Shown one piece after another: positions 2,857 to 48,919 of a stretch of DNA of 64,000 bases; the stretch's first letter is position 1, and each line of letters starts with the position of its first letter. The position numbers were made by a program, and so were the translations under genes. Below the pieces are notes generated by a model. It saw only the letters and a list, made by a program, of their open reading frames with translations. It had not been told where the DNA came from and searched no databases. The stretch comes from Massalongia carnosa. Lineage: Eukaryota. The stretch covers positions 186,001 to 250,000 of the forward strand of contig OZ287072.1 of NCBI GenBank assembly GCA_965645245.1. Reading direction: 5' to 3'.

Positions 2857-4973
2857 ATGACAGCAGTTTTGCAAGATTAGCATATCCTTATCAATGTTTT
2901 ACTTTCGATTTGATTGGTTTGATATCTGCTTTTCCGCCGTATCTGCTGCCCGGATCCCTTTGGCCAGAAATTCCTCGTCGTATAACGTGTTGAATTGATC
3001 CCAGTCTATGTAATTGTTGACGTAAAACACGTCTGAGTTGATTCCCGATGGTATCAAATGTGCGCTACGCATTATCATAGATAGATCGTAGAATCGTCTA
3101 CCATTCAAATTTCGGGGGATTTTGCGTGTGTTCTGGGCCAAGTCTTCATTTCTATCATTCCATGTATTTCATTCGGTTGACCATTGTTCCGAGGCCGTAA
3201 AAGATCAAGAAGCACACCAGAATACATCGGGTGTTTGCCTCGAGAGTCTCTTCTGGCATGATCAACAATGGTAACAATCAATTGAACATGTCCTATCAAT
3301 CTTCCCTCTAGAGCTCTAGAATTGCCAGTTCCGTGGCACTCTCCTGCAGAATTTTCCTGAACCCATACGTAATCTCGTCTCCAGTTTCTACTCCTCATCC
3401 AGCTTGGTGCGCAACGTATGATTTCGGACTTGAGCGCCTCCAGGTCCGATGAATCCTTGCCATCCCGTATCCAGCATTTGATACCTTTATGTATCGAAAT
3501 CAAATGTGAGCCCGCCCAAGAAGAATCCGTCTCTCGTCGATATAAATTAGCATTGCTAGTTCGTACACCCTCCAACTTGTATCGGCCTTCTCTGATGAAT
3601 ACTGCCAAGGCGTCGAGGAAATCGTGAAGATGAAGCACGTCCGCAACACGAAAAGCTTCTCGCCATATTTTGTAACTTCGTCCGACCGCTTGCAGTTGAT
3701 CCATTTCTTCCTCATCCCACGACCAGTCTAGTGACGAAAGATCGAGGGCTCGAGTAAGCGAGGACACTTGCACTGTCATCTCTTTATCTACTTGATTTCC
3801 CTTTCTGCTCTGCCTGTAAAGCTCAATGTCTTTCATTGCCAGGGAGTTGAGACGTCGCGTGTTGTGTTGTGCTATTTGATCTAAATAACCGTCTTTCTTG
3901 TTGGTCCTATCGAAAAAAGCTTTAACTAGATATCGATGAGCAGCTTCGCTGTGAGAAGTATCCATCCCATCTGCGCTGCCGAATTGTTTGATATGCTCCA
4001 CATAATGTGTCATGACATGCCACTTAGGAAAATTAAAGGTGGGTTGACCGGTTTCGTTGTCTTTGGGTCGACTTTTTCCAAACACCCTTTTGAGCTTGTC
4101 GATACGATACAACGCATTGTGGCGAAATCACAGATGGCTCGAACGCAGAGCATAGCAGCAGGACATTTGCCAGTCAGAAATGGAGCCACAACAGGAACAA
4201 ATATTCTTAGTATATCCTTTTGTTCGTTCCCCGACCATTGTGTTATCTTACTGAACTTCGAGAAATGTTGAAGATCAGAAAACGAAGGCACAACGTCAAA
4301 TCGATGGTCGAGCTGTGCAGCAATGGGCGCTTCCTCAATCAAAGCCTCGTCAAATCTTCGTTTTCTTTTGATTGGCGTTATATCATCAATAAGGATCTGA
4401 GTCCATTCTATCATATTCATTATAATGCCCTTCAGCAGTTGATGAAGTATATCAACCATCATTACACCGTGTATGTTGACCAATTGATGTTTCCAAGCAA
4501 AATTGGTCACTGGATGTACCCAGGCTTCATTTGCCTTTGGAATTACTTGTCTAGTTCGGCTATGCTGAGAGCTAGTGCGTCGTTAATCGAGACAGCTCCC
4601 GCTTTGATTTCGGCACCGCATGGATCTCTCGGACGGCATAGATGTCTCAGCACCATAAGGATGTCTCAGCACGGCATAGAGATCTTAGCACCGCATCGAT
4701 CCTTCGGACGACAGTTAGGTTTCGGATTTGTGTATGCCTTGCTATGGGCCGCGTTGATGGGGCATACTGGGATGGTAGAGTAGGACAAGGAGAATAGGAA
4801 GAAGATATATAAAGAGGAGGTCCCAGACGGTATCCCTCATCATCTCACATCTCAAGACAATCAAAAGCATAGCATTTTGATAGCACTGTTTGCAACGTTT
4901 TCTTTTCACCCAATTCAAATTTATACAACCACTACACTTAAATTTACTCTATTCAAATCCCTCTCCTCCAAAA

Positions 4974-6128
4974 ATGGCCACCCGCATCTCCAACAGAATC
5001 ACCAAGCCTACCTCCCGCACACAAGGCAGCACTCTAGCCCGTACTAGAACTAGAGCTAGGGCAAATCTAGCCAACTCCAACCCAGACGTCGAAGTACCCG
5101 ACTCACAAGACAGCACGGCAACCCTTCAAAGCCATCCTCAACCTTCTCCTCTTCCATCTTCAGCGTTTAATTCCTCCTCACAAGGGCCTGTTATACCGGA
5201 AACCCGTTCTCGCACCCCTGATGACATTATTGAACTTAGAGCACAACGCGAAATGTCCCGCAGGGAAGCCGAGGAAAGAGAAAGAGTAAGTCTTAGGCGG
5301 GATATCGAAACCCAACAAGCACGTGCCCGAGACGTGGTCCCTGGGCCAGTAGCCTCAGCTCAACAGCCTTCCCTATTATTTCCGACATCATTTCCACCGC
5401 ATCGACCAAACTCATTGTATACAGAAGGTATGGATCCTCGTTTTGTTTCTCTTATGAACGAATATCCCACTATCAAGCCCATATGGATAAAGCAAATCTC
5501 CGAGAATACGTTTGACCCAATCAACATTACCAAGCTATGTACCGACATCGACGGAGTTCAAACCAACTCTAGATACGTCAAACTCGGAGAAGGTCTGGAA
5601 ATCGCCACGAGAGAAGAAGATGGCTCCTTAAAAGATATCAAAGGGATAGTTCATTTGATACGATGTCTCGGGGTATATTGGATGATACTACTACACTTTG
5701 CACACCCCGGTCTCCAGATAAACCTGATGAGAGCCTTCATGGCTTATCAGGACCATCTTCTATCATTATACGCCTTCTACACCTGGGACTCGGTTCGCAT
5801 CTTTCATTTGAATTTCCACAAATCTCGAGCCTTTCGCGGGATTGACAACCCGGATGGATGGAAAGAAATGGACCATTCCTTGGAAAGGCATCTTGTGCGG
5901 AAACCGTCCGCTTACTTTGCAAAACCGGACGATAATTCTACGGCTTTCAAAACCTCAGGCGAAAAGATTATCTGTAAGAAATACAACTATGGCAAAGACT
6001 GTCCCGTATATTGTAGATTCCAACATGTGTGTGAGAAATGTGGAAAGCAACATCGGGCGATGGACTGTACAAATGGAAAAAATCAACCCTCTAACCCAAA
6101 TTCGATGCCTCTCCCATCAAGGCAATGA
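4974..6128 (+). CDS. Ngaro A Gag-like protein with C-terminal Cys/His zinc fingers
   Basis: ATG at 4974 downstream of TATATAAA (~4805); C-terminus CKKYNYGKDCPVYCRFQHVCEKCGKQHRAMDC. Confidence 0.85.
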   Translation: MATRISNRITKPTSRTQGSTLARTRTRARANLANSNPDVEVPDSQDSTATLQSHPQPSPLPSSAFNSSSQGPVIPETRSRTPDDIIELRAQREMSRREAEERERVSLRRDIETQQARARDVVPGPVASAQQPSLLFPTSFPPHRPNSLYTEGMDPRFVSLMNEYPTIKPIWIKQISENTFDPINITKLCTDIDGVQTNSRYVKLGEGLEIATREEDGSLKDIKGIVHLIRCLGVYWMILLHFAHPGLQINLMRAFMAYQDHLLSLYAFYTWDSVRIFHLNFHKSRAFRGIDNPDGWKEMDHSLERHLVRKPSAYFAKPDDNSTAFKTSGEKIICKKYNYGKDCPVYCRFQHVCEKCGKQHRAMDCTNGKNQPSNPNSMPLPSRQ

Positions 6129-7745
6129 CTAACCGCCCCATTCTTATCCATCGCGGAGTCCTTTCCATACACCTTGACGGACAATCTAACAAAGATCCCA
6201 CCGGGCCCATTGAAGAAAGAAGGCTGGGAGAAACATTTGGCCAATCACCCGGATCGCACTTACACACAAACAATTATCGATATCATCACCTACGGTGCCA
6301 AAGTTGGTTATACAGGACCACATCAACTCATTATTAGCGATAATCTTGCCTCTGCAAATGAGGCACCGGAAGTTCTTACCAATGACCTCGAAGAACAAAT
6401 AGCTAGTAATCGGTTGGAGAAAGTCAACAACATTCCTTCTTGCTTTATATGTTCCCCATTAGGCCTTGTACCAAAGGCTAACGGTGGTTGGCGGCGAATC
6501 CATCATCTATCGTATCCGGAGAGTAGCTCAGTCAACGACCACATACCGGAAGACTGGGGCTCCCTGGAATATACCAGCTTCGACGAAGCCATTAGGTTGA
6601 TTGAGCAACGCGGGCCAGGGTGTATTCTTATTAAAAGAGACTTTGCGGACGCTTTTCGCCACATACCAGTAGCAAAAAGCGATTGGTGGTTACTAGGTTT
6701 CAAGTGGCAGGATTCCTTTTGGATGGATAAATACTTACCCTTTGGGCTGAGAACGTCGCCGTTCCTTTTTGATCTGTTCGCGAAGGGTATCAACTGGATA
6801 TTGTACAACTGTGGTTGGAAAGACGCTATTCATTACTTGGATGATTTTTTAATAATAGTCAGCACCGGACCAGATGCTGAAAAGTTTGATCAAGTTTTCC
6901 ACAACATTTGTAAAGATCTTGGCATGAAAATCAAGCTCGAAAAGAACAGAACTGGAACGACTTGCGATTTCCTCGGCATTGAAATCGATACCGCGCTCAT
7001 GGAAGCACGCTTGCCTTCCGAAAAGTTACTAAAAGCAAAGACCCTAGTATCGGCAGCTTTGAATAAAAAAGCCATACCCAGGAAGGAACTCGACTCTCTT
7101 CTAGGATTCTTATGCTTTGCAGCCAGAGTGGTAAAACCAGGAAGAGCCTTTCTACGCCGTCTTTTCAATGCTACGGCAAGCGTAACCTCTAAACTAATCC
7201 ATCTTAACAAGGACATGAGGGCTGATCTTCTATGGTGGCATCATTTCCTACCTAAATGGAATGGCATACATCTGCTCAACCGTACTAGACATACTATGAG
7301 AATATGGACAGATGCGTCCGGCTCATATGGTATGGGCGGCTTTATCCTCAGCGAGGATCAAAATTTGCATAATATACAAGCAGCCCGGCAGGCTTTTAGC
7401 ACACGCTTTACTACGCGCCTTAGGGCAAAGCATATCAACGTCAAAGAAATGACAGCAATTCTTCAAGCTATGAAAAAGTGGCTACCTATATGCAAGGGTA
7501 GTCATTTAATCCTCTATTGTGATAGCTACGCTGTCACGAAAGGAGTGAATAAAACCTCTATACGAGGCCAAGCAATGCATGCCCTGCGGGCAATTACAAT
7601 GCTAGCTGCATTACATGATATCCAGATAGAAGCGCGATGGATATCATCCAAAGAAAATTATATTGCTGATCTCTTGTCTAGAGGACTTTTGAAGAAACTG
7701 GCTGACAAAATCCCTCAGTTTCAGGCTCTACCCTCAGCAATATAG
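6129..7745 (+). CDS. Ngaro A reverse transcriptase/RNase H (in frame with gag, no early ATG)
   Basis: SPLGLVPK, WRRIHHLS, DFADAFR, LPFGLRTSP, HYLDDF, TDAS, INVKEM, ADLLSR. Confidence 0.92.
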   Translation, partial: LTAPFLSIAESFPYTLTDNLTKIPPGPLKKEGWEKHLANHPDRTYTQTIIDIITYGAKVGYTGPHQLIISDNLASANEAPEVLTNDLEEQIASNRLEKVNNIPSCFICSPLGLVPKANGGWRRIHHLSYPESSSVNDHIPEDWGSLEYTSFDEAIRLIEQRGPGCILIKRDFADAFRHIPVAKSDWWLLGFKWQDSFWMDKYLPFGLRTSPFLFDLFAKGINWILYNCGWKDAIHYLDDFLIIVSTGPDAEKFDQVFHNICKDLGMKIKLEKNRTGTTCDFLGIEIDTALMEARLPSEKLLKAKTLVSAALNKKAIPRKELDSLLGFLCFAARVVKPGRAFLRRLFNATASVTSKLIHLNKDMRADLLWWHHFLPKWNGIHLLNRTRHTMRIWTDASGSYGMGGFILSEDQNLHNIQAARQAFSTRFTTRLRAKHINVKEMTAILQAMKKWLPICKGSHLILYCDSYAVTKGVNKTSIRGQAMHALRAITMLAALHDIQIEARWISSKENYIADLLSRGLLKKLADKIPQFQALPSAI

Positions 7746-8761
7746 GACGCGATCCACCCCCATCTTGGTACAGTGAGGTACCTTTAGACGAAATCGCAGC
7801 ACGATACCTCTGGTGGGGCCTGGCCACTAAGACAAGATCTTTATACACAACGGCAAGAAAGGGATACGTTCTTTACTGTAGGGTAAACCTCAACGCGCCA
7901 CCATTTCCAGCCAACATCCGGACGCTGTCTTCGTGGATCGCAGCGTTGGGTGAACGACGCCTGCAACCAAAAACTATTAAGAGCTACTTGACGGGCATAA
8001 GATCATGCCAGATAGATATGGGCCTCGGTAATCTCGACGTATTTCATCACCCGGTGTTAGATCGCATCCTTACTGGCATAAAGCGAAAGAACGGTGAAGC
8101 CGAGAAACGTGAAAGGTTACCAATTACTAGAGAGATCTTAATCAAATTGCTAAGTCGTCTTGATCAAACGAAAGAGAAAGGCGCAAATTTACATGCGGCG
8201 TACTGCTTAGCGTTTGCAGGCTTCTTACGAGCCGGAGAATTTACTTACACAACGCAAGATGTACTAGACCCAAGCTTTGATCAATGGCACCTCACCAGAA
8301 AATCTATTAGGTTCGAAGCAGATCACCTACAGCTCTCTCTACCAGTCTCCAAAACCGATCCCTTTCGCCGAGGCATAACACTGACAATTGCGGCTACCAA
8401 CGATGTTGCTTGTGCACTAGCTTCTCTTACAAATTTATATAGGCGATTCCCAAGTTCTCCGGCCGCACCACTCTTTAAAAACGGTCAGTCCTTCACTCGA
8501 GACTACATTACAACAGCGATGAAATCCACCTTAAGGAACTTGGGCTATATAGGAAATTTCTCTGGCCACTCGTTCAGAAGAGGTGCGGCAACAACAGCGC
8601 GACGGGCAGGACTCACCGAAGACGAGATTCAGATGCTAGGAAGATGGAAGTCAGACGCATACAAGCTTTACATACAAACCCACCCCACTTACCTTCTTAA
8701 CGCCTCAAAACGCCTTCAAACATTACCCACGGAACCTCACAATCCAGTCACTAGGTCCTGA
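7706..8761 (+). CDS. Ngaro A tyrosine recombinase (open frame starts at 7706 without ATG)
   Basis: FLRAGE, SKTDP, GHSFRRGAA, GRWKSDAYKLY; frame open from 7706. Confidence 0.92.
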   Translation, partial: QNPSVSGSTLSNIGRDPPPSWYSEVPLDEIAARYLWWGLATKTRSLYTTARKGYVLYCRVNLNAPPFPANIRTLSSWIAALGERRLQPKTIKSYLTGIRSCQIDMGLGNLDVFHHPVLDRILTGIKRKNGEAEKRERLPITREILIKLLSRLDQTKEKGANLHAAYCLAFAGFLRAGEFTYTTQDVLDPSFDQWHLTRKSIRFEADHLQLSLPVSKTDPFRRGITLTIAATNDVACALASLTNLYRRFPSSPAAPLFKNGQSFTRDYITTAMKSTLRNLGYIGNFSGHSFRRGAATTARRAGLTEDEIQMLGRWKSDAYKLYIQTHPTYLLNASKRLQTLPTEPHNPVTRS

Positions 8762-10130
8762 ACAACACCGCAAGCGGGTCGTTCCATGTTGGGGATTGGG
8801 AGTCTGTTCACAGCCCAAGGCCTGCGAGAGGGTCTTACATTAGTAGACAGCAAGGCCCTTATCGAGTCCCCCTCTCGAGGCCGGGGGCTGTGAGCAATAG
8901 CCCAAACATACTTAGTAGCAATATAACGAGATTGACACGAACTAGCTAGTTCGGCTATGCTGAGAGCTAGTGCGTCGTTAATCGAGACAGCTCCCGCTTT
9001 GATTTCGGCACCGCATGGATCTCTCGGACGGCATAGATGTCTCAGCACCATAAGGATGTCTCAGCACGGCATAGAGATCTTAGCACCGCATCGATCCTTC
9101 GGACGACAGTTAGGTTTCGGATTTGTGTATGCCTTGCTATGGGCCGCGTTGATGGGGCATACTGGGATGGTAGAGTAGGACAAGGAGAATAGGAAGAAGA
9201 TATATAAAGAGGAGGTCCCAGACGGTATCCCTCATCATCTCACATCTCAAGACAATCAAAAGCATAGCATTTTGATAGCACTGTTTGCAACGTTTTCTTT
9301 CCCACCCACCCACTCCAGTTCTTCTGTCGCTTAGATAGAGGGAGTCTGTTCACAGCCCAAGGCCTGCGAGAGGGTCTTACATTAGTAGACAGCAAGGCCC
9401 TTATCGAGTCCCCCTCTCGAGGCCGGGGGCTGTGAGCAATAGCCCAAACATACTTAGTAGCAATATAACGAGATTGACACGAACTAGCTCTCTTGTTTGG
9501 CGATTTGAGATCGAGTTGTTTCATGTGTGCGTGGATCCCATTTTCCTAGTAAATTTTCTCTTTCGTTTGAGGGAACCTGGCAAATGCTACAATGACGCTG
9601 ATATTTTATCCCCGTAATCAAAACCTGCTCTTCGTAGTCCACAGTGAAGCCGGCGATAATAGGATAACATCGTCGCACATGTCCATCGGCACAAGTCAAA
9701 AGGATACCATTTTTGAATGTTGTTTGATAGCTAGCACGGCATTCAAGTCATGGTTAGTTATCGTTATAATAAGGAGGGAGTGAAACTCACGTCTGAGCAT
9801 CATTTTCATTGCAAGATGATAGACCTGAGCTTTCAGTTCGTCTCCCTTCTCCTTCTCCTTGACAATAGGGATAAAACCTAACAAAACGATACCCGGTCTA
9901 TTGGGCTGGCGTCGAGTCTTTCGATCCAAGTTTCCAATCGTAAGATAAACAGGCCACGCCGACTGATCTCCATGATGCTGGGTGAGTCTTGTTTTGTCTG
10001 TAGCTAAGAGAAGTGGCACAACTGTTGCATTTTCAGGAAGCTGTTCTTGAATTGACCACCACCAGTCACCTGTTGCCATTTCACTGAACATACGTAGATC
10101 TGCGCTATTATACTGACGGATGGGTGCGTA

Positions 10131-13122: not shown

Positions 13123-14953
13123 CGAGGTGCTTAGGGACAGTCCCACTAGTAATGCAACTGCCAACAGCACATTAAACTCTTTTCGGTTTAAATCGTATGA
13201 CGTGTTATTGCTACTAATAATTACCCTACTCGGTCTGATAAAGCATACCCTCACCCCCACACTCACCCTCACCCTCACCCTCACCCTCACTTACCATTTG
13301 CCCTTGCCTATAAGACAATCGGTGTAGAAAATATGTGATGAGGTGCGGAAAAAACAATTAGATCAGGAGATTTTGTGCAATCAACAGCGAATACGCAATC
13401 CTAGATTGATCGATAGAAATGCTTTTACGTTACTCATTGGGAAAATTACAAATCATGCCATTAGCCTCGTTTCAAGAGAACTCGATGCCGCCAAATAATT
13501 AGCTGAACGAATCCTTTCTATTGTCCCTGTTGGTGGAAGCTGTGTTTATGATTGTGAGTTGCCTTTAAGGTACGGTCTCCCATGCAAATGCTGGTTGTAT
13601 AAATGCATCATCGACTCGGTCCCTATTCCCGTTTCCCTCATCCACCCCCGCTGGTTTTTTGATGGCCCACCTTATGCGGTCTCTTGGCAAATGACCTTCG
13701 ATTTCGCTCGTGGCTCGGAGCCCGAGGTCGAAAAGATCGTCGATGAGGTCGAAGGGACGGGAGAGATTGAGGCGGATAAGGATGAGGTCGAGCTCGAAGA
13801 AGGCGTGTTGAGTGAGGATAGATTTCGCCGCGGGGGCCTTTATTTGCTACAATCTGTGGCATATCAATCTATTGACCTGCATCAATCAATAGAAGATTTT
13901 CATCGAAGGGAGGAGTACGCTCGCGAGCATGCTCATATCGTTGAAAGTTCAATAAGAAATGGTAAAAGAAGGAGCTGGTAAGACCTCTCATCCCCACCAC
14001 ATTCCCCGACGAAATTCGGCCCAAAGAAAACCTCATGTATAAGAAAGGAGGGAGTCGTCGACGTGCCTGCACTGGTCGCGAGGCAGCTGAGGCTAGAGAA
14101 ACTGAACAGCGACGTACTAGGCGAAGGGACTCTATTGAACAAGGGAGGAGGCTTAGATATAATAGATTGCGTGCTGGGGGCGACGATGAGGTTGAAGGTG
14201 AAACAGAAGGTAAAATTCACGATGGTGCAAAGTTATTGCGCTCGGGTCGGCTAATATTGGGTACAATAGTTTCAGGAGAAAACTTAGTTATGGCGAGAAT
14301 CGAAAACGCGTCTATCGTCTCCGACGACGATGACGAGGTGCAGTATATAAGCACTCAGCCCATTCTCGGTCGTTCTATGGATCCTATGCTTCCTTCGGAT
14401 GACGAAAATGATATTATTCTTACATCAGAAGCCTCGTCGGATTCGCTCGAAGATATTGACGATATGCTTGCCAAGCATAGTCAAAAAGCCCTACCTCAGG
14501 CAGCGCTGGCTCCATCTCTTTATAGTCTTAGCCAAAACGTACGCGCCAGTCAAATTCTCCCTACTTCCTCTGCAACAACGCGAAGGTCTCGGGGTGTGGC
14601 GAAGAAATCAAAGGCTCAGTTGGAGTTGGAATCTCAGCAAAGAGTCGAGAAATCAGTCAAACAGGCTAGGGCTCAAGCGAGAAAGGAAACGGCGATGAGA
14701 AAGGTGGCTAAAACCATGAAGCCTAGAAAAGATGATGTATCGCAATTGGCTGACGAGTTTTTGGAGTGGAAGTCATCGCAATAGGTAGATTTGTAGGTGT
14801 TGAGTACACTTAGTCAGTAACAGCAACATTATTAATACGTAGTCTAACTACTAGCTTGTACGCACCCTGGATGAGTAGTAAAATGGCTGTTTACTAGTAA
14901 AGATTTACAACAGGGGGGGGACGGTCGGGGGGGGACTGTCCCTAAGCATCTCG
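13123..14953 (+). mobile_element. Non-autonomous Mutator-like (MULE) deletion derivative, copy 1
   Basis: Termini CGAGGTGCTTAGGGACAGTCCC / GGGACTGTCCCTAAGCATCTCG; 10-bp TSD (C/T)GAGATGTCC; only the transposase C-terminus remains (SWIM-like GLPCKC, IHPRW); left TIR internally deleted. Confidence 0.88.
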
Positions 14954-16639
14954 TGAGATGTCCTACCGAGCCTTATCCTATGTGCTGTCCTTGCGTAGAT
15001 CGTTCACCATCTGCCAAACTCATTACCTTACCTGGTCCTTCATTAGTTTTCGCAGTAAAGAATCTATTACAGAATTGGAAGAATGAGTGGGAGAAGTCAG
15101 TGGACACTCAACGCTCCTCTTTGATGGATCTTCAGTTGTTTATAGCAGCACATCGAGATGAAAAGACTCTGCAACTACAATACCACCATCGACTCAGTCT
15201 ACATACGAACTCCGACGATCAGCCAATCTCCGGTTAGGAGCGATATGTGGTGCTAACTACTACGGGCTCTTACCAGGGTCAAGTACAAACACTACTCCGG
15301 AAGCTAATTCCACGTAAAGAACTGGCGTCCAATGGGGGCGCATCATTGTAGATGAGATCCATAAGCAAAAGAGTGTCTCCGCTACACTTCCCAGCCTATT
15401 GCATATCGTCGCGGGAAAGTACTTCAAACATCGACATCTCTCCTATGGATATGGCCGGCTATTTGCGAGCATTGGCTACCGAAAGCTGGGAAGCAGACTC
15501 AGTGCTACAGCATGGAACTAGAGCGGGATTAGAAAGCATTGGAAAAACCTTTCACGTATTGATAAAAAATCAAGCCGGTAACATAGAAGATAAAAAGAAG
15601 GTAACGGGAACTTTCAGAGCGCTGCTACAGCGGATTATGATTCGCCGGACTAGTCAGAGTCGTTGGTTTGACGACCAGCCATTGATAGATATTCCCCACA
15701 TAGACATCAAGAGGTGCCATGCCTCTTCAAGAAGAAATACGTCGCCGACATGAATGCGCTCATAGTCATAGCGGAGACAAAGCTCAAGGAAGATTGTGCA
15801 GCACGAAGTGCAGCATGGATCGATAGAGGTCGGATAGGAGAGGCACCAAAGCGTCCTTTTGTGCGTTTCTATGACCCTTATCGGTGCCGTTACCTTCGCT
15901 TGCGCTGGGGGGGCTTTTAATTGGATGAATTGATTTGAATGCTTGAATTTGATTGGGCATGGGAACGACACAGGTCAGCCCGGGCAGGCCTAGGCACGTG
16001 ACTCGGGGTCGGTGCTGAGGTGAGAACCTCATCTTCTAGGCCCGAGGCGTCTGCTGACGCTCAACGATCCGATAGATGATGCCCGACGGCAGTGCCCGAC
16101 GGCGATGATCTAGATGGAGGTGCCCGGCGGCGCTCCGGATCGATGCCCTGGTTGACCTGTACGCCCATCGCTCACTTAAGGTGGCTTCTAACTAGCTATG
16201 AATCTCGGGTGGCCGAGGGTGGGGAAAAGCAGCAAGCACTGACAGCGAGGTAGGGGCACCGAGACAACGTGGGGTCGACGACGAGTCAGTGAGATGGATG
16301 AGGCCGAGTGAGAAGAAGTGGATGAGGAAAGAATTTTCAGAGGGTGATTCTTAATTTACTTTGACTCAGGGGCCTCACGTGACATAGAACCATCTCATCT
16401 ATGACCCTTATCGGTGCCGTTACCTTCGCTTGCGCTGGGGGGGCTTTTAATTGGATGAATTGATTTGAATGCTTGAATTTGATTGGGCATGGGAACGACA
16501 CAGGTCAGCCCGGGCAGGCCTAGGCACGTGACTCGGGGTCGGTGCTGAGGTGAGAACCTCATCTTCTAGGCCCGAGGCGTCTGCTGACGCTCAACGATCC
16601 GATAGATGATGCCCGACGGCAGTGCCCGACGGCGATGAT

Positions 16640-17803
16640 CTAGATGGAGGTGCCCGGCGGCGCTCCGGATCGATGCCCTGGTTGACCTGTACGCCCAATG
16701 GAATGCCCAATTGAGTAGGGGTAGGAGTTTGTAGGATTCGTCTCGGCGACGACAGCACGTGGGACTGCTAGAGGGATGCCTTTTTGAAAACTGAGGTTCA
16801 AATTGAATAGTGAGGCCTGGGACGTCTGAAAGTATAGCTGAAACGCGTTTGATGACCATCTTCCGAGTCTCTGAATACTCTCATCCAGCATCCCGTGGTC
16901 GGCGGCGTGTTGTGCTGCTCCTTTTCTGAAGCTGTGTCCCGAGTATGCCGAGTCGTTGATGCCGACGGCTATCAGTCTCTTTTTCAGGGATGCTATGACG
17001 GAGGCTCTGGTGAATGCGGTGCCGAGACGAAAAAGCGGGGATGTAGATGGCTGAGGATCATTTCTGAAAAGACGCCGTAGTGCTGTCACGGGGCAAGTGC
17101 TCTCATTGGTCGCTGCCAGCACTATCTGAACTCCTGAGTGATTTGTGTCTGTTTTGCTTCTTTTGAGACGTAATGTCGCGTATTGATCGTTCTCGGCGAA
17201 TGAGATGTCACCTCGTGTAGGTTTCAATCTCTGAAAAGATGTCTTCTTACGATCAGCGACAGTGTAGGTGATTTCCCCGAGTCTGAGGAACCCTGCCCAT
17301 GCAACTTTGAATGTCGCGTCGATGTTGAGGTCTTCGGCCGAATGAGCGGGAATACTGGTGATTTTTGTCAGTAATTCTTTTGAAATGGGTAGGCGTCTTC
17401 TTTTTGTCTGAGAAAAGATCCTTTTTCCCCCTTTCAGCATCAATTGAAGTCTCGGCCCCTCGAATGGGGTGAGGCCGTATCCTCGGTCTACATGGTATGA
17501 TCTGAGGCCGGCGAGGTAGCTCGCTGCCGTCTCTGGTTTTATCTTTCCCTGCTTGGGTGTGCCGCCCCCGTATAGTCGACCGGCTAGCCATTCCTCGAGG
17601 GACTCGGTTGTTGCAGGCCACGACGTGCGTCCCGTCGTCGCGCAGAATGCCTCGTATGAGTCGATCGCCGTCCCGTACCCTTTTCTCGTGTCCGCCGAGT
17701 GTCCGTGCCAGACGAGACGTTTTACCAGGGCTGACCCTGGTGTGGAGGATAGGTAGGTGGAGGGAGGTTCATCGAATTGTATGGGTTCTGCCAATGAGGG
17801 CAA
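16640..17803 (-). CDS. Ngaro B tyrosine recombinase
   Basis: FLRLGE, KRSKTD, GHSFRKGAA, GRWSSNAFQLY. Confidence 0.92.
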   Translation of the reverse strand: MPSLAEPIQFDEPPSTYLSSTPGSALVKRLVWHGHSADTRKGYGTAIDSYEAFCATTGRTSWPATTESLEEWLAGRLYGGGTPKQGKIKPETAASYLAGLRSYHVDRGYGLTPFEGPRLQLMLKGGKRIFSQTKRRRLPISKELLTKITSIPAHSAEDLNIDATFKVAWAGFLRLGEITYTVADRKKTSFQRLKPTRGDISFAENDQYATLRLKRSKTDTNHSGVQIVLAATNESTCPVTALRRLFRNDPQPSTSPLFRLGTAFTRASVIASLKKRLIAVGINDSAYSGHSFRKGAAQHAADHGMLDESIQRLGRWSSNAFQLYFQTSQASLFNLNLSFQKGIPLAVPRAVVAETNPTNSYPYSIGHSIGRTGQPGHRSGAPPGTSI

Positions 17804-19425
17804 AAGTTAGCCAATCTTTCATCATCAAAACGTGACAGGGCATCTGCTAGTCCATTGGAAGTGCCACTGATCCATTGACAACGTAGTACGATGTCCCACT
17901 TTGCAGCTATGGACAGTATTTCTCGTAGAGGCGCGTTGGCCGGTCCCTTGAGGGTTAGATTCGTGAATCCTGTGTATGCTGTGTTGCTGTCGGTAAAGAC
18001 AAGGATCTGTCGATGTCGCCATGTCGGCGCCCATTTCTGAAGGATTAGAAGGATAGCTTCGACTTCTCGGACGTTTATGCTCGGTGATCCTTCCTGATTG
18101 AGGACTAGGACTCGGGCCCTACATGCGTTTTTTTGATTCACGAGCTCGTTGTCTTGTTGAAAATAGCCTCCGAGACCCGTGAGGCATGCATCCGTATGCA
18201 CCTTGATCGTGTCTCGTGTTGACGTCTCGAAGAAGACAATACCGTTGAAGTCCACTAGAAGTTTGTTCCACCAGATGAGATCCTGTCTGACCCATGTGGG
18301 AATTCTTCTTTTGACCCGACGATGACTGCCCGAGGGAAATGAGGCTATAAAATTCCAGAATAATCGTAAGAAGACTCGGCCCAATTTGACTGCCTGTGCG
18401 CAGAAGCTTAGGAAGCCCGCTATTGACTGCATGTCGCCGAGGCTGATTGTCGTCTCGTTTAGTGCCTTTGTAGTGATGATTCTCGCTTTTTCCAGCTTGT
18501 CCGCTGGCAGACGAATAAGACTGTTGATGGTGTCGACCTCGAGTCCGAAGACTGTCGCTGTCGTTCCCTCGGCGTCTTTTGAGTCGTTTCTCGGGATGCC
18601 GAGAATGTCGGTGAGAATGTTGTAGGCTTTTGTTTCTTGGTGCAATCGTTCTGACGATGTCTCGGATGGGAAAATTGCAACGAAGTCGTCTAGATAGTGA
18701 TGTAATCTCCATTGTAGAAAGGATTCCAAAATCCAATGAAAGCCTTCCGCAAAAAGATTGAAGATGAACGGGGCCGTCGACAGTCCGAACGAAAGGCATG
18801 TCTCGGTGTAGAATTCGTCATTCCATCCGAAACCCAGAAGCCATTGATGATGAGGTGCGACGGGAACGTTTCGAAAGGCGTCTTTGACGTCTCTTTTCAC
18901 TATGACAGCACCTTTGCCCGCTGACAGAATCAATTGAATAATGTCGTCGAGTCTGGCGTATTGTAATTTGGATGCCTCTTCTGGAATGTTGTCGTTGACT
19001 GATGTTTGATTGGGATGAGACAGATGATGAATGCGTCGCCATCCTCCGTCATGTTTCGGGACCAAGCCGAGGGGGGAGGCCACAAATGGCTGACTCGGGG
19101 CGGCTATTCGTCTGACTCGGCCCTTCCTGAGGTCCTCTTGGAGCTTATTCTCGATCGTTTCCGGGTCCTCATTCGCTGATGTCAGATTTTTTTCGATCCG
19201 AAGGATGTCTGTGGGGCCTTCGTATCCGATTTGTACTCCGAAACGAAGGATCATGGGCAGATGGACTCGGAGGGGGCCCGGATACTCTTGAAGTAGAGTT
19301 GCCCATGCGGACGGTACGAGGGGAGATGGGCTGTCTTTCAAACGCTGACGAGATGCGTCTACGAGTTGAAACGAAGGGATTGTATTTGGTCTGATTGGTG
19401 CAGGTAAGCAGGGATGGGACGTCAT
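17722..19425 (-). CDS. Ngaro B reverse transcriptase/RNase H
   Basis: SPLGLVPK, DVKDAFR, LSFGLSTAP, HYLDDF, HTDAC, INVRE, TDS, ADALSR. Confidence 0.93.
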   Translation of the reverse strand: MTSHPCLPAPIRPNTIPSFQLVDASRQRLKDSPSPLVPSAWATLLQEYPGPLRVHLPMILRFGVQIGYEGPTDILRIEKNLTSANEDPETIENKLQEDLRKGRVRRIAAPSQPFVASPLGLVPKHDGGWRRIHHLSHPNQTSVNDNIPEEASKLQYARLDDIIQLILSAGKGAVIVKRDVKDAFRNVPVAPHHQWLLGFGWNDEFYTETCLSFGLSTAPFIFNLFAEGFHWILESFLQWRLHHYLDDFVAIFPSETSSERLHQETKAYNILTDILGIPRNDSKDAEGTTATVFGLEVDTINSLIRLPADKLEKARIITTKALNETTISLGDMQSIAGFLSFCAQAVKLGRVFLRLFWNFIASFPSGSHRRVKRRIPTWVRQDLIWWNKLLVDFNGIVFFETSTRDTIKVHTDACLTGLGGYFQQDNELVNQKNACRARVLVLNQEGSPSINVREVEAILLILQKWAPTWRHRQILVFTDSNTAYTGFTNLTLKGPANAPLREILSIAAKWDIVLRCQWISGTSNGLADALSRFDDERLANFCPHWQNPYNSMNLPPPTYPPHQGQPW

Positions 19426-19470
19426 GAATTCAGCTATTGAAGCTATTCTACTGCCTCCTGCACCAACCCC

Positions 19471-20484
19471 CTATTTCTTCGTTGGGCATGTCTTCTGGCC
19501 ATGCCCAGCCGCGCCGCACGATTTACATTTGTGCTGTCGGTAGCACGACGGCCAGGTGCAGGTGCCGCTGTTGTACTTGTCGCAGATTTCCCCCGCTGCC
19601 TTCTCGGCCCTATCGGCCCTGTCTCCTCTCGGGGTCGGTCGCCGGGACGGCGGGGATCGTGAGCGGCGACGGCGTAGGACTGTGAGGGGGGTGCAGAATC
19701 GAGCTTGGAATTCGTCGGGCATTTTCCATTGGGATGCGTCGGATGGCTGAGACGCGATGATGTGAGTGTGGGTTTCGATGGCGAGGGGGAGGACTGCTTC
19801 CTGCCACTCGTACACCTTGGCCAGCGTGAGGATTTTTCCGTGGAATGCCGACATGGTGGCGTGAAGCTGTTGACTCGATTTCCCGAAAAGACTGACCATG
19901 ATCGAGGTGTAGTTGATGAAGCTCTCGGTCCAGACGTCATGAACTGTCTTTCCGAAATCTTTGTAGGTCCCGGATGCCTTTCTCAACCTCAAGGCGCCGT
20001 CTTCGATGCCGATGCGGTCCTGATCCTTGTAGGACTCGTATTGCATGCCGTGCATGTGTCGGAGGCGGGAGAGGTTGATGGCTTTGAATTTATTTGAAAA
20101 GATCTTGATGATCTCGTCCTGTGGTAGGCCCGCGAAACGGGGTGCTATACTTCTTACTTCGAGAGGGATCTCACCTAGGTCCTCGTCGTCATCGCCGACG
20201 ACACGACTCGGCTTGCCAGCAGGAATGACGGCCGCTATTCGGGCGTCAGATTCTCGGCGCATGCAGTCGATTTCTAGCTGCATTTTTTCCACCTCCTTCT
20301 CGGCGACCAATGCCTTGGACTCGGCAATTCTGGCCTCAGCCTCGGCCGCCTTCGCTTCTGCCTCGGCTTTCTTCTTTTGTAGGGCGAAGATTTGATTGGA
20401 CTGGGCCTGCGTCAATCCGACAATCTCCTGGGAGTCGGGGACTATGTCGTCCATCGGGGTGCTTTGGGAACGGGTGTTCGTCAT
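19471..20484 (-). CDS. Ngaro B Gag-like protein
   Basis: ATG at 20484; coiled-coil-like N-terminus; C-terminal CDKYNSGTCTWPSCYRQHKCKSCGAAGHGQKTC. Confidence 0.85.
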   Translation of the reverse strand: MTNTRSQSTPMDDIVPDSQEIVGLTQAQSNQIFALQKKKAEAEAKAAEAEARIAESKALVAEKEVEKMQLEIDCMRRESDARIAAVIPAGKPSRVVGDDDEDLGEIPLEVRSIAPRFAGLPQDEIIKIFSNKFKAINLSRLRHMHGMQYESYKDQDRIGIEDGALRLRKASGTYKDFGKTVHDVWTESFINYTSIMVSLFGKSSQQLHATMSAFHGKILTLAKVYEWQEAVLPLAIETHTHIIASQPSDASQWKMPDEFQARFCTPLTVLRRRRSRSPPSRRPTPRGDRADRAEKAAGEICDKYNSGTCTWPSCYRQHKCKSCGAAGHGQKTCPTKK

Positions 20485-21270
20485 TGGGAAAAAGCACCGA
20501 CAGCGAGGTAGGGGCACCGAGGACAACGTGAGGTCGACGACGAGTCAGTGAGATGGGAAAAGCAGCAAGCACTGACAGCGAGGTAGGGGCACCGAGACAA
20601 CGTGGGGTCGACGACGAGTCAGTGAGATGGATGAGGCCGAGTGAGAAGAAGTGGATGAGGAAAGAATTTTCAGAGGGTGATTCTTAATTTACTTTGACTC
20701 AGGGGCCTCACGTGACATAGAACCATCTCATTTCTTGACGGCGTACAAGTTACGAGTCGCCACGACCTTTTCATTCTTGGCCAAGCTGTACAAGAATTAC
20801 AATTCTAAACCTATCGAAATAACAAAAAAAGAGTGACATATCAAGCCAGATCCAGAGTTTAATCCATATGTGCAGCATCTTGGGGAGACCATAGAATCGA
20901 GCTTTGACTAGAATGAGCTGATGTATTCGTTAGGTCAGGAGCATAACGACACGAGAAAATCTATTGACTATGTTATCTTCCCTAGCCGGATGTCATGTTG
21001 CATTTGTGGTGCGTCACATCCTATACTACTCTCATTATCGATTCAATGAAATAATTTAACCTACTGCATAGAACAGATACTAAAACATAGAATGAATACC
21101 GACGTTCAAAATAACAGTCGCAGCGCTCACGATACTGGAGGACTACGAACTATCTACATATGACTCGGGATCACGGGCATTGGAGACTTTATCGTTTGAG
21201 ACTTTTGAGGTTTGACATACTGAACCTTTTACAGAGATGATCTACGGTAAGCTAACACTAACTAATCCTA

Positions 21271-21345
21271 ATCTAACAGCTAACAGGATTTTCTTGATCT
21301 AACAGGGTTTTCATGATCTAACAGGGGCTGTTTTAATCTAACAGG
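21271..21345 (+). repeat. ATCTAACAG repeat array (inverse of 2650-2856 core)
   Basis: Four ATCTAACAG copies plus partial units. Confidence 0.75.
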
Positions 21346-29366: not shown

Positions 29367-29601
29367 TAAATCCTTGATTATGCAAGCTAACTTAAAGTAA
29401 AAGGCAACATTACGCGAAACAAAAAGCCGCAATGTAAGAGCTGTGGGCCTTGCTGCAAAAAGGAAGCATGTTGGGACATTTTACATAGATCATGAGGGGT
29501 AATTGAGGTGTTGTACCCATTATCGTCAGAAATGGAAAATGCAGTAAATCTGATTGGTCAGATTAAAGTTATTAGTCATTACCCGGTGACGGTGCGTGTA
29601 A

Positions 29602-32600
29602 ATGAGATGGTTCTATGTCACGTGAGGCCCCTGAGTCAAAGTAAATTAAGAATCACCCTCTGAAAATTCTTTCCTCATTCACTTCTTCTCACTCGGCCTC
29701 ATCCATCTCACTGACTCGTCGTCGACCCCACGTTGTCTCGGTGCCCCTACCTCGCTGTCAGTGCTTGCTGCTTTTCCAATCTCACTGACTCGTCGTCGAC
29801 CTCACGTTGTCTCGGTGCCCCTACCTCCCAATGACGAACACCCGTTCCCAAAGCACCTTGATGGACGACATAGTCCCCGACCCCCAGGAGATTGTCGGAT
29901 TGACGCAGGCCCAATCCAATCAAATCTTCGCCCTACAAAAGAAGAAAGCCGAGGCGGAAGCGAAGGCGGCCGAGGCTGAGGCTAGAATTGCCGAGTCCAA
30001 GGCATTGGTCGCCGAGAAGGAGGTGGAAAAATGCAGCTAGAAATCGACTGCATGCGCCGAGAATCTGACGCCCGAATAGCGGCCGTCATTCCTGCTGGCA
30101 AGCCGAGTCGTGTCGTCGGCGATGACGACGAGGACCTAGGTGAGATCCCTCTCGAAGTAAGAAGCATAGCACTCCGTTTCGCGGGCCTACCACAGGACGA
30201 GATCATCAAGATCTTTTCAAATAAATTCAAAGCCATCAACCTCTCCCGCCTCCGACACATGCACGGCATGCAATACGAGTCATACAAGGATCAAGACCGC
30301 ATCGGCATCGAAGACGGCGCCTTGAGGTTGAGAAAGGCATCCGGGACCTACAAAGATTTCGGAAAGACAGTTCATGACGTCTGGACCGAGAGCTTCATCA
30401 ACTACACCTCGATCATGGTCAGTCTTTTCGGGAAATCGAGTCAACAGCTTCACGCCACCATGTCGGCATTCCACGGAAAAATCCTCACGCTGGCCAAGGT
30501 GTACGAGTGGCAGGAAGCAGTCCTCCCCCTCGCCATCGAAACCCACACCCACATCATCGCGTCTCAGCCATCCGACGCATCCCAATGGAAAATGCCCGAC
30601 GAATTCCAAGCTCGATTCTGCACCCCCCTCACAGTCCTACGCCGTCGCCGCTCACGATCCCCGCCGTCCCGACGACCGACCCCGAGAGGAGACAGGGCCG
30701 AGAGGGCCGAGAAGGCAGCGGGGGAAATCTGCGACAAGTACAACAGCGGCACCTGCCTGGCCGTCGTGCTACCGACAGCACAAATGCAAATCGTGCGGCG
30801 CGGCTGGGCATGGCCAGAAGACATGCCCAACGAAGAAATAGGGGGTTGGTGCAGGAGGCAGTAAAATAGCTTCAATAGCTGAATTCATGACGTCCCATCC
30901 CTGCTTACCTGCACCAATCAGACCAAATACAATCCCTTCGTTTCAACTCGTAGACGCATCTCGTCAGCGTTTGAAAGACAGCCCATCTCCCCGTACCGTC
31001 CGCATGGGCAACCCTACTTCAAGAGTATCCGGGCCCCCTCCGAGTCCATCTGCCCATGATCCTTCGTTTCGGAGTACAAATCGGATACGAAGGCCCCACA
31101 GACATCCTTCGGATCGAAAAAAATCTGACATCAGCGAATGAGGACCCGGAAACGATCGAGAATAAGCTTCAAGAGGACCTCAGGAAGGGCCGAGTCAGAC
31201 GAATAGCCGCCCCGAGTCAGCCATTTGTGGCCTCCCCCCTCGGCTTGGTCCCGAAACATGACGGAGGATGGCGACGCATTCATCATCTGTCTCATCCCAA
31301 TCAAACATCAGTCAACGACAACATTCCAGAAGAGGCATCCAAATTACAATACGCCAGACTCGACGACATTATTCAATTGATTCTGTCAGAGGGCAAAGGT
31401 GCTGTCATAGTGAAAAGAGACGTCAAAGACGCCTTTCGAAACGTTCCCGTCGCACCTCATCATCAATGGCTTCTGGGTTTCGGATGGAATGACGAATTCT
31501 ACACCGAGACATGCCTTTCGTTCGGACTGTCGACGGCCCCGTTCATCTTCAATCTTTTTGCGGAAGGCTTTCATTGGATTTTGGAATCCTTTCTACAATG
31601 GAGATTACATCACTATCTAGACGACTTCGTTGCAATTTTCCCATCCGAGACATCGTCAGAACGATTGCACCAAGAAACAAAAGCCTACAACATTCTCACC
31701 GACATTCTCGGCATCCCGAGAAACGACTCAAAAGACGCCGAGGGAACGACAGCGACAGTCTTCGGACTCGAGGTCGACACCATCAACAGTCTTATTCGTC
31801 TGCCAGCGGACAAGCTGGAAAAAGCGAGAATCATCACTACAAAGGCACTAAACGAGACGACAATCAGCCTCGGCGACATGCAGTCAATAGCGGGCTTCCT
31901 AAGCTTCTGCGCACAGGCAGTCAAATTGGGCCGAGTCTTCTTACGATTATTCTGGAATTTTATAGCCTCATTTCCCTCGGGCAGTCATCGTCGGGTCAAA
32001 AGAAGAATTCCCACATGGGTCAGACAGGATCTCATCTGGTGGAACAAACTTTTAGTGGACTTCAACGGTATTGTCTTCTTCGAGACGTCAACACGAGACA
32101 CGATCAAGGTGCATACGGATGCATGCCTCACGGGTCTCGGAGGCTATTTTCAACAAGACAACGAGCTCGTGAATCAAAAAAACGCATGTAGGGCCCGAGT
32201 CCTAGTCCTCAATCAGGAAGAATCACCGAGCATAAACGTCCGAGAAGTCGAGGCTATCCTTCTAATCCTTCAGAAATGGGCGCCGACATGGCGACATCGA
32301 CAGATCCTTGTCTTTACCGACAGCAACACAGCATACACAGGATTCACGAATCTAACCCTCAAGGGACCGGCCAACGCGCCTCTACGAGAAATACTGTCCA
32401 TAGCTGCAAAGTGGGACATCGTACTACGTTGTCAATGGATCAGTGGCACTTCCAATGGACTAGCAGATGCCCTGTCACGTTTTGATGATGAAAGATTGGC
32501 TAACTTTTGCCCTCATTGGCAGAACCCATACAATTCGATGAACCTCCCTCCACCTACCTATCCTCCACACCAGGGTCAGCCCTGGTAAAACGCCTCGTCT

Positions 32601-33912
32601 GGCACGGACACTCGGCGGACACGAGAAAAGGGTACGGGACGGCGATCGACTCATACGAGGTATTCTGTGCGACGACGGGACGCACGTCGTGACCTGCAAC
32701 AACCGAGTCCCTCGAGGAATGGCTAGCCGGTCGACTATACGGGGGCAGCACACCCAAGCAGGGAAAGATAAAACCAGAGACGGCAGCGAGCTACCTCGCC
32801 GGCCTCAGATCATACCATGTAGACCGAGGATACGGCCTCACCCCATTCGAGGGGCCGAGACTTCAATTGATGCTGAAAGGGGGAAAAAGGATCTTTTCTC
32901 AGACAAAAAGAAGACGCCTACCCATTTCAAAAGAATTACTGACAAAAATCACCAGTATTCCCGCTCATTCGGCCGAAGACCTCAACATCGACGCGACATT
33001 CAAAGTTGCATGGGCAGGGTTCCTCAGACTCGAGGAAATCACCTACACTGTCGCCGATCGTAAGAAGACATCTTTTCAGAGATTGAAACCTACACGAAGT
33101 GACATCTCATTCGCCGAGAACGATCAATACGCGACATTACGTCTCAAAAGAAGCAAAACAGACACAAATCACTCAGGAGTTCAGATAGTGCTGGCAGCGA
33201 CCAATGAGAGCACTTGCCCCGTGACAGCACTACGGCGTCTTTTCAGAAATGATCCTCAGCCATCTACATCCCCGCTTTTTCGTCTCGGCACCGCATTCAC
33301 CAGAGCCTCCGTCATAGCATCCCTGAAAAAGAGACTGATAGCCGCCGGCATCAACGACTCGGCATACTCGGGACACAGCTTCAGAAAAGGAGCAGCACAA
33401 CACGCCGCCGACCACGGGATGCTGGATGAGAGTATTCAGAGACTCGGAAGATGGTCATCAAACGCGTTTCAGCTATACTTTCAGACGTCCCAGGCCTCAT
33501 TATTCAATTTGAACCTCAGTTTTCAAAAAGGCATCCCTCTGGCAGTCCCACGTGCTGTCGTCGCCGAGACGAATCCTACAAACTCCTACCCCTACTCAAT
33601 TGGGCATTCCATTGGGCGTACAGGTCAACCAGGGCATCGATCCGGAGCGCCGCCGGGCACCTCCATCTAGATCATCGCCGTCGGGCACTGCCGTCGGGCA
33701 TCATCTATCGGATCGTTGAGCGGCAGCAGACGCCTCGGGCCTAGAAGATGAGGTTCCCACCTCAGCACCGACCCCGAGTCACGTGCCTAGGCCTGCCCGG
33801 GCTGACCTGTGTCGTTCCCATGCCCAATCAAATTCAAGCATTCAAATCAATTCATCCAATTAAAAGCCCCCCCCAGCGCAAGCGAAGGTAACGGCACCGA
33901 TAAGGGTCATAG
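29602..33912 (+). mobile_element. Ngaro family B, copy 2; lacks A2-B2, ORFs disrupted
   Basis: Near-identical to 15869-20731; AA flanks; frameshifts near 30030, 30757 and 30993; TGG>TGA at 32690 in YR; single A and single B repeat. Confidence 0.93.
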
Positions 33913-34160: not shown

Positions 34161-35401
34161 GAAATGCCGCGCCCGGCGAAATGCCGCACTTTACAATTCG
34201 GCATTAGAATATTGTTTTCGTCGTTAATCAACAACTACAACGATTAATGGAATGTGTTTTAAATATAGTATAAATAGAAATTATGTAGCCGAGCCTTTCT
34301 TTATTGCTACTTCTCAAAACATCTATATAGTACTGAAAGAGTTACCCTGCTACTTTGGGCAACACTACCTTATTCGGTTAGATTGAACCCGAAAAAGGGA
34401 ACGCGGCTTTGCGGAACAGTACTGAATTATCAAATAATGCGGGGAGGACCTCCCTGCGGACAGGACCAAAAATTCCCCTCTTGCCTCGACCGTACCGGAC
34501 CGTTTCACTTCGTCAAACTTCGGAGATCGACTGATCCTGTTGATATCAGTCCGTATCGCGAAAACTACGTTCTTTTACGTTCGTTGTGGGCCGCGAGAGG
34601 TGGTCGTTGTTCGCGTTTTTCATGTTTTGATGTTCCCGAAAACTGCGCTAAATCCGTCCGTTCAATGAACCTGCGAAAACCCTCGATTCGGTTTAACGTA
34701 GTCTTAATTGGGTTTAGCATTAACAATTATCTGATCTCTTCGCAACAACAGCAACGACTACCGCTATATCTTTGCAGCCTAGCTCTTCTCCTCGAGAAAT
34801 CGTTTCTCGACTTCCCATTCCGTTACGACAATGGTGTTCTCTCCGTAGACCGCATAATAAAGTGAATTCTCCGGAAAATCCTCCCGCAAAACGCGTTCGT
34901 CTAATCTTACGACCACCGAAAACGTTCTGTTAGTCTTTTCCTGTCAGGGGAGGGCTGGAGAGATACAAGACTCTATCTTGCAGAACGGATATCTAGATAT
35001 GCTAAAACTAGAAGTAGAGAATAATACACAAGACGTCCGATGAAGAGCTCTAAACACCTGGGAAACCACAGACTTTATAGCCATGGCTTTCAACTCTCCT
35101 ATTCTCGACTTGCCCCGTCTCTGTTCCTGTACTAATTTCCTTAACATGATTGCTTTGACCTATCCCGCCTTTATCTGTGCTGAAGCACTCTCAGTCATAA
35201 GCCTGGATAGTGGAGACGTTGAGATTGGATGCGGATTGTAGGAGATTGATAGTGCGCTGAGGGCGGCAGAAGAACGCCTGAGCACGATGGATGACAGCAA
35301 TGGGCCCTGTTAAATACTAACCCGATCAGGACAAGCGGGAGGGTGCGAAGCGATTCCGTGACAGTAGCTCCCCTCTTCAAGAACGAGCTCCTGCGAGTTG
35401 A

Positions 35402-48740: not shown

Positions 48741-48919
48741 GCTTTGACAGATGCTTTGGCGGGTGCCAAGGAGGAGATAGCGTAGGGCCGTTGCGGAGCG
48801 AAGCGAAGCATGTCCGGAGCAGAAATCAGAGATATTTTGAGATTCGCATGAAAAAATAGCAAGCCAAATAGTAAGTAATGAAAAGTAGTAGTAAATTAGA
48901 TTTTTTCATTCGAAACATC

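Follow-up and report, generated by a model that had tools for sequence, protein, structure and literature searches.

A putative conserved intron joining a Gag leader to the start-less tyrosine recombinase of fungal Ngaro-type retrotransposons

Subgenomic splicing is classical for retroviruses, for copia and for foamy viruses. In the DIRS order of retrotransposons, it has been a puzzle how the tyrosine recombinase (YR) open reading frame (ORF), which lacks a start codon and lies in a variable frame relative to the reverse transcriptase (RT), gets expressed, and the literature examined describes it only as overlapping or frameshifted. Fungal Ngaro elements of this order carry gag, RT/RNase H and YR in that sequence, have no methyltransferase and are bounded by split direct repeats (A1...B1-A2-B2), according to passages of Muszewska et al. 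2013 (PMC3783388); in those same passages the YR ORF is placed in the RT frame or frameshifted, and the words 'intron' and 'splic' are absent. Similarly, no natural intron is reported in Ribeiro et al. 2019 (PMC6681497) or Piednoel et al. 2011 (PMC3266345), and Malicki et al. 2020 (PMC7192593) used an artificial marker intron only. Here, we analyzed a window of 64,000 nucleotides (nt) from the Massalongia carnosa assembly GCA_965645245.1 (contig OZ287072.1, positions 186,001 to 250,000 of the forward strand; coordinates below are those of the window), which holds two Ngaro-type YR retrotransposon families, A and B. It is probable, in our assessment, that a conserved spliced subgenomic mRNA fuses the N-terminal leader of Gag to the recombinase in these elements, as one of three routes of expression.

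The intron proposed for copy 1 of family B (Table 1) has GT...AG ends and a CTRAY branch motif within the 10–40 nt before the first AG expected of spliceosomal introns, and the reading frame is open across the join. The last base of the branch-point-like GCTAAC lies 18 nt, and the branch A itself (17807) 19 nt, before the G of the acceptor CAG, with no other AG in between. The stop from which the YR frame opens is the TAA within GCTAAC, and in family A it is the TGA within the corresponding GCTGAC. Joining 20175 to 17787 makes the junction codon G^AA (Glu; ^ marks the splice point) and yields a predicted spliced sequence of ...GACCTAG^AACCCATAC..., a junction peptide of ...DDDEDL-E-PIQF... and an open protein of 485 amino acids (aa; 103 Gag residues, Glu and the recombinase). 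The open Gag'-YR fusion of family A is 498 aa long. A first-pass annotation of this DNA had proposed the donor at 20174, a GCTAAC 18 nt before the end of a CAG at 17788 and an open 485-aa join, and every letter of this is as stated. It had also offered copy 2 of family B as a second instance: the same letters do recur at 30140 and 32522, but this copy adds no independent evidence, since it is a 98.6% identical duplicate (36 mismatches and 6 gap openings over 4335 nt) and its join is not open. In copy 2, exon 1 is frameshifted and a stop interrupts the YR, leaving the join open in copy 1 alone.

Support for the intron comes mainly from diverged relatives. Searches with the YR returned 242 homologues at E <= 1e-5, annotated no further than 'integrase' or 'hypothetical'. 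A scan of metagenome contigs matched 605 stretches, 423 of which encode relatives; the best 80 of these (34–50% aa identity) were kept. Grouping them and families A and B at 80% YR identity gave 53 clusters. At the start of the YR, 43 of the 53 clusters carry NCT[AG]A[CT] followed by an acceptor, which is CAG in 35, TAG in 6 and AAG in 2, and the first usable AG falls 11–19 nt past the branch A in all 43. By comparison, acceptor-type sites occur in the loci of these relatives at ~0.5 per kb. In 42 of the 43 clusters a YR codon begins with the acceptor G; only in L079 does the YR lie in a different frame. Among the remaining 10 clusters, upstream DNA is absent from the locus in six, L053 reads CTGAA...CAG, L055 is degenerate, and L014 and L026 fit the pattern on inspection by eye; the automated acceptor rule missed L014, L026 and L056, where an AAG or GAG stands 3–5 nt past the branch, and these three were judged by eye. 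Past the CAG, conservation of the RT frame is lost entirely and that of the YR frame sets in ([EG]P[LI]xF[DN]xPP).

These relationships bear on the possibility that the recombinase is made by a programmed -1 frameshift from the RT frame, as the end of a Gag-RT-YR polyprotein produced by readthrough plus frameshifting, with the splice-like motifs incidental. Overlapping frames are a classic retroelement arrangement, the YR of family B is indeed in the -1 frame relative to RT with an overlap of 85 nt, and -1 is the relation in most relatives as well. However, YR-frame conservation begins right after the CAG, which confines any shift to the 18 nt that separate TAA from CAG, and neither family B nor the consensus (AAY NNN TGY CCN CAY TGG CAG) has an X XXY YYZ heptamer there. 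The relation of RT to YR is moreover not fixed, being +1 in L003/L004 (RT stop inside CTAAC) and 0 in L014, whereas the splice phase is constant; in L031, L040 and L064, whose RT stop is the acceptor TAG, the overlap amounts to only 18 nt. Frameshifting would also leave unexplained the invariant T of the Ala codon at the branch site and the conserved GGT GAG in Gag, both described below. We therefore regard it as very unlikely.

Somewhat less probable still is independent translation of the recombinase, with ribosomes initiating internally on the full-length or an internally promoted RNA, at an ATG in some families and at a TTG (17803–17801) in family B. Gene callers do begin many homologues at M-[SP]-x-L-A in this region, and some named or JGI models have a literal Met. 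Nonetheless, only 5 of 43 clusters have an ATG at YR codon 2 (L012, L013, L015, L021 and L035, the last belonging to cluster L034), which is about or below the 1-in-4 chance expected for an NTG that stems from the RT-frame Cys codon. The YR-frame residues ahead of the CAG (x-[SP]-x-L-A) are exactly what the RT-frame C-P-H-W predicts, and the YR ORFs of families A and B have no Met codon (ATG) for more than 100 codons. In family B, the first Met falls well within the recombinase fold.

To avoid circularity, the branch codon was then located by homology instead of by its letters, counting 12 codons on from the first A of the RNase H motif A[DN]xLSR, a motif that 33 clusters have. The third base of this codon is T in 30 of the 33, and NCT-RAY is found in 29. 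Wherever the codon encodes Ala, it is GCT (25/25 clusters, against a background GCT frequency of 0.23), whereas at the two control Ala codons a short way upstream, in ADALSR, GCT is used in 16/33 and 9/30. Where the residue is instead Thr (ACT) or Ser (TCT), the CT is retained, and the next residue alternates between Asn and Asp, so that RAY is retained too. Neighboring synonymous sites vary freely (TGT 13, TGC 7; CCT 13, CCA 3, CCC 4; CAT 13, CAC 6). Four clusters depart from NCT-RAY, namely L003 and L044, in which CTAAC...TAG^ is shifted downstream, L055, a degenerate relative of L044, and L027, which could not be judged. At the acceptor itself, three clusters end RT with a TAG precisely there, losing the Gln and keeping YAG.

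The donor behaves in the same manner. In an alignment of 23 Gag ORFs, 20 of which (16 clusters) cover the donor region, 16/16 clusters have a phase-1 GT where the variable, charged leader gives way to the conserved Gag core, lying at the aligned column in 12 and 2–10 codons off in the other 4. Most of these donors read G^GTGAG, the others being G^GTATG, G^GTACG/T, C^GTGAG and A^GTGAG, and elsewhere in the aligned Gag ORFs a phase-1 GTRNG takes up ~0.4% of codons. The donor codon is NGT throughout (GGT 14, CGT 1, AGT 1), with Gly encoded as GGT in 14/14 cases (background 0.22), and the Glu that follows is GAG in all 11 clusters having Glu (background 0.43). Equivalent places in L064 and in L061/L073, whose Gag was missed by the profile, carry G^GTGAGT and G^GTATGA. 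Open Gag'-YR fusions of 426–567 aa, across introns of 2291–2563 nt, are found in the 11 loci with both ends intact (L003, L006, L010, L012, L022, L024, L034, L064, L073, WA and WB). The signals are thus conserved at synonymous sites and in phase among diverged relatives, as expected of a spliceosomal intron.

Protein constraint, combined with chance, might still have produced the motifs without anything being spliced, as there is amino-acid conservation of both the RT peptide [IVL]-A-[ND]-x-C-P-H-W-Q and, in Gag, the dipeptide G-E. The first-pass annotation had itself allowed that an RT-frame constraint (LA[D/N]...Q) could contribute. This constraint is real but does not account for the data, because Ala is always GCT, Thr and Ser replacements keep the CT, a change from Gln to stop keeps YAG, and phase 1 survives changes of the RT/YR frame. 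More generally, synonymous sites are fixed at the signal positions only (GCT, GGT and GAG), the nucleotides are retained through residue changes (A/T/S, Q/stop and G/R/S), and an exact joined product, P0160, exists, so we give this explanation slightly less credence again than internal initiation. Other parts of the annotation fared well: the donor positions of families A and B, which it had called alignable, are 2 columns apart in the 23-ORF alignment, just before the conserved Gag core; its argument that recurrence in a divergent family speaks against chance is borne out by the synonymous-site tests, which put the pattern beyond chance; and the comparison it had proposed, of synonymous-site conservation at GCTRAC and CAG across families, was strongly positive in the 80 distant relatives, as it was for the donor.

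Joined products were sought among public proteins with a profile search of 1.84 billion representatives, which gave 27,809 matches; the best 150 were listed, and 12 that were N-terminally extended or odd were retrieved. One of these, P0160 (324 aa, on a single public contig of 2222 nt), reads ...RRPTADEDDE-G-LLLFNPPAAFHAW... (...PTADEDDE-G-LLLFNPPAAF...). Its first 110 residues, used as a query, matched 6 proteins, three of which are Gag (P0268, named hypothetical protein of Elaphomyces granulatus, P0269 and P0270). Gags of the P0268 type continue ...TADEDDE-GE-I[PS]PEA..., that is, G^GT GAG, and the YR ORFs P0075 and P0078 read VPPLA-G-LLLFNPP... and MSPLA-G-LLNFHPP.... Judged from sequence, P0160 is a P0268-type Gag leader joined to a P0075-type YR exactly at the predicted codon, and in tblastn against the YR loci the acceptor G is precisely where its match begins in L005, L015, L016 and L017. 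A second case, P0182/P0267 (513 aa, on contigs of 3.85 and 28 kb), has a Gag leader joined directly to the YR with nothing between. This leader resembles residues 79–151 of family A Gag (E 5e-7), the alignment stopping one or two residues before the donor codon, and the YR is 51% identical to that of family A. Whether the contigs of P0160 and P0182/P0267 are complementary DNA (cDNA) or intronless genomic copies, they presuppose a spliced RNA. Should they prove genomic, they would represent recombinase-only mini-elements, spliced RNAs that had been copied back into DNA. The remaining candidates were set aside. P0020 was rejected as a spliced product, its N-terminus running into the Gag core (LE[IV]xxxAxxFxGLxxD[ED]I[IL]) and its YR part beginning 36 residues past the acceptor position, and the N-terminal extensions of P0205 (a Collybiopsis confluens model), P0168, P0223 and P0262 could not be tied to a Gag leader. 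For family B itself, Gag residues 1–110 as a query matched 2 proteins only, each a Gag from that same family. Public assemblies do contain contiguous Gag'-YR ORFs that lack RT (P0182/P0267 and P0160). The least credible explanation we considered is that P0160 and P0182 are DNA deletion derivatives formed by recombination, with the motifs serving another cis function: such derivatives do exist, since the Gag-YR fusion of P0020 is not joined at the donor, but both breakpoints of P0160 match the conserved G^GT and YAG^ to the codon, the donor and acceptor motifs have no common core for recombinase exchange, and the motifs fit 5' splice site, branch and 3' splice site consensus in order, spacing and phase.

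Several observations weigh against the spliced Gag'-YR mRNA. Conservation in the acceptor region is partly protein-driven, as the RT-frame peptide CPHWQ is itself conserved at the protein level. In the clade L058/L060 the donor assignment is uncertain, and an intron of 2.4 kb is long for fungi. Compared with P0075, P0160 carries a small deletion and is frameshifted near its end, and therefore derives from a decayed copy, and the contigs behind P0160 and P0182 may be RNA or DNA. Of 6 sequencing runs containing the family B element, none is recorded as RNA. When contigs of runs X1, X3, X4 and X6 were compared with 16399–20731, the predicted joint 17787->20175 was not among the 15 listed of 38 joints. 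The only one of these 15 at the acceptor uses a donor at 18122 and would make the junction codon T^AA, an immediate stop; this joint, 17787->18123, may be noise or a rearranged DNA copy. It is nevertheless the best supported of the 15 listed (run X3, one contig, depth 1962): it skips 335 nt, reads CT..AC on the plus strand, which is GT...AG on the strand of the element, and has its 3' end exactly at the predicted acceptor 17788, hinting at use of the acceptor and not at a productive mRNA. The same contig comparison showed 25 variant places, none of them in the signals, and has no power as a test of the signals because the variant places do not touch them. Run X3 has a summed word depth of ~250,000 on the element and 4110 short contigs, with many non-canonical internal joints; this depth could reflect very high copy number, enrichment or strong expression.

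Taken with the conserved signals, the putative spliced mRNA suggests the following scheme for family B. Full-length RNA would serve as the mRNA for Gag, and readthrough of the single in-frame TAG after Gag would give Gag-RT/RNase H. A fraction of the RNA would be spliced by the host spliceosome from G^GTGAGA (20174) to CAG^ (17788) by way of the branch site GCTAAC, fusing 103 Gag codons in phase 1 to the start-less YR ORF, so that the 485-aa Gag'-YR could be translated from the Gag AUG. The shared N-terminal leader might bring the recombinase to Gag assemblies or to the nucleus, and may co-localize the three proteins. With regard to the second step, Gag and RT are in one frame with a single stop between them in 16 of 20 loci (L003, L007, L011, L012, L024, L034, L063 and others), and an ORF of at least 370 codons follows in the same frame. 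The stop is TAG CAA TT[AC] in five loci, which we take to be the leaky-stop context of the tobacco-mosaic-virus type, and TAG CAA plus another codon in two more; in family A it is TGA CTA (6126–6128) and in family B TAG GGG (19471–19473). This arrangement suggests that Gag-RT may be made by stop-codon readthrough.

A broader proposal, which we hold only tentatively and think rather doubtful, is that all fungal Ngaro elements inherited an intron of 2.3–2.6 kb from their common ancestor and depend on it as their sole route to the recombinase, forming an independently evolved, retrovirus-like three-tier programme of Gag, of Gag-RT through readthrough and of Gag'-YR through splicing, and that the spliced RNA, keeping both sets of terminal repeats, is reverse-transcribed and inserted, seeding intronless Gag'-YR mini-elements (P0160; P0182/P0267 on the 28-kb contig). 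Were this true, recombinase-only units might form a link from YR retrotransposons to Crypton-like DNA elements. For the narrower claim, a conserved intron would be a concrete and easily tested answer to how the recombinase is expressed. For annotation, the recombinase would have to be modeled as a two-exon gene starting at the Gag AUG, the splice signals would be diagnostic for intact copies, and intronless Gag'-YR copies would be predicted in genomes.

Copy 1 of family B is an intact Ngaro-type element. Its gene order is that of Ngaro, a gag-like ORF1 followed by RT/RNase H and then YR. There is no methyltransferase domain, as the pol ORF matches only RVT_1 and RT_RNaseH and the element has no further long ORF; the absence of this domain sets Ngaro apart from DIRS1-like and PAT-like elements. 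Split direct repeats A1...B1-A2-B2 are present, both pairs (D8, 20555–20731 and 16222–16398; D5, 16398–16697 and 15868–16167) being 100% identical. As regards the extent of the RT frame among the relatives, it stays open 336–987 nt past the acceptor, overlapping much of the YR, in L007, L041, L046, L049, L050, L058 and L061, and elsewhere stops within 0–90 nt. The two family B copies sit in an inverted duplication that includes ~1.8 kb of flank at 97% identity (13146–14920 versus 26945–28704), and seem to reflect a single segmental inverted duplication rather than two insertions. Upstream of family A (2666–2834, plus strand) and of family B copy 1 (21271–21344, minus strand) are arrays of CTGTTAGAT, on the strand of the element in each case; the motif occurs in 9 exact copies at ~20-nt spacing, where 0.4 would be expected, and none is upstream of copy 2. 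The rest of the window contains a Ty3/gypsy-type long terminal repeat retrotransposon (34942–41456, minus strand), with identical terminal repeats of at least 300 nt and with protease, RT, RNase H, integrase and chromodomain in a frame broken into four ORFs. A MULE/Mutator-type transposase ORF (45575–47713, minus strand) lies between inverted repeats 45300–45452 and 47774–47947 (element 45300–47947) and adjoins a tandem array of 12-nt period (48177–48750). Host genes at 55095–58883 and 59838–60797 include a NACHT(NPHP3_N)-WD40 NLR-like ORF (1262 aa) and a fructosamine-kinase-family ORF, which is consistent with a filamentous fungus.

Table 1. Window coordinates of the Ngaro-type elements and of the proposed splice signals (^ marks the splice point)
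Feature	Position	Strand	Basis or remark
Family B copy 1, whole element	15868..20731	-	Direct repeats D5 and D8, ORFs, Pfam
A1 repeat, family B copy 1	20731-20555	-	D8
B1 repeat, family B copy 1	16697-16398	-	D5
A2 repeat, family B copy 1	16398-16222	-	D8
B2 repeat, family B copy 1	16167-15868	-	D5
Gag ORF, family B copy 1	19471..20484	-	337 aa from ATG at 20484; ends TAG 19473-19471; RT next, same frame
RT/RNase H ORF, family B copy 1	17722..19470	-	Gag frame, directly after single TAG; Pfam RVT_1 and RT_RNaseH
YR ORF, family B copy 1	17806-16640	-	-1 frame relative to RT; Pfam Phage_integrase weak (E 0.005)
Exon 1, coding part	20175..20484	-	Gag ATG + 103 codons + 1 nt; variable, charged N-terminal leader
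5' splice site GTGAGA (AG^GTGAGA)	20169..20174	-	Phase 1 in Gag
Proposed intron	17788..20174	-	2387 nt; takes out Gag core, zinc knuckle, Gag stop and all RT/RNase H
Branch-point-like GCTAAC	17806..17811	-	Ala-Asn in RT frame
3' splice site CAG	17788..17790	-	G would be first base of YR codon (phase 1)
Exon 2, YR coding sequence including stop	16640..17787	-	First Met >120 codons in
Alternative or cryptic donor GT in CAT^GTAGGG	18121..18122	-	Joined to 17788 acceptor in run X3 contig
Family A, layout as family B	4551..9489	+	Pfam, repeats, ORFs
Family A donor AAG^GTATGG	Intron start 5428	+	
Family A branch-point-like GCTGAC	7701-7706	+	
Family A acceptor CAG	Ends 7718 and 7724	+	
Family A YR ORF	7706-8761	+	
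Family B copy 2	29600..33873	+	Signal letters identical to copy 1 at 30140 and 32522

No earlier description of a Ngaro intron expressing the YR as a Gag-leader fusion was found in the literature searched, which did not extend to the original Ngaro description (doi 10.1093/molbev/msh072) or to supplements. The putative intron is accordingly a known strategy, subgenomic splicing, in a class where it has not been described before, and DIRS-order elements would be a third retroelement class to arrive at the retroviral logic of setting protein ratios through readthrough plus subgenomic splicing. In avian sarcoma/leukosis viruses, the env mRNA is spliced and uses the gag AUG with the first few gag codons. 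Family B would resemble this arrangement in having one primary transcript, a donor inside gag, an acceptor before the downstream gene and a Gag fusion that is short, but its downstream gene is the integration enzyme, its leader has ~100 residues versus 6, its intron would remove RT, and its host is fungal. Foamy-virus Pol and Drosophila copia Gag are likewise expressed from spliced subgenomic RNAs, and in both, as proposed for family B, splicing and not frameshifting sets the protein ratio; however, foamy Pol is made without a Gag portion, splicing of copia RNA yields Gag only, and neither has a tyrosine recombinase. Gag-pol readthrough is known from the murine leukaemia virus type, and UAG CAA UUA is the context of the tobacco-mosaic-virus type. 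The murine leukaemia virus type of readthrough, with its single in-frame stop, resembles the Gag-RT step of Ngaro and not the splice.

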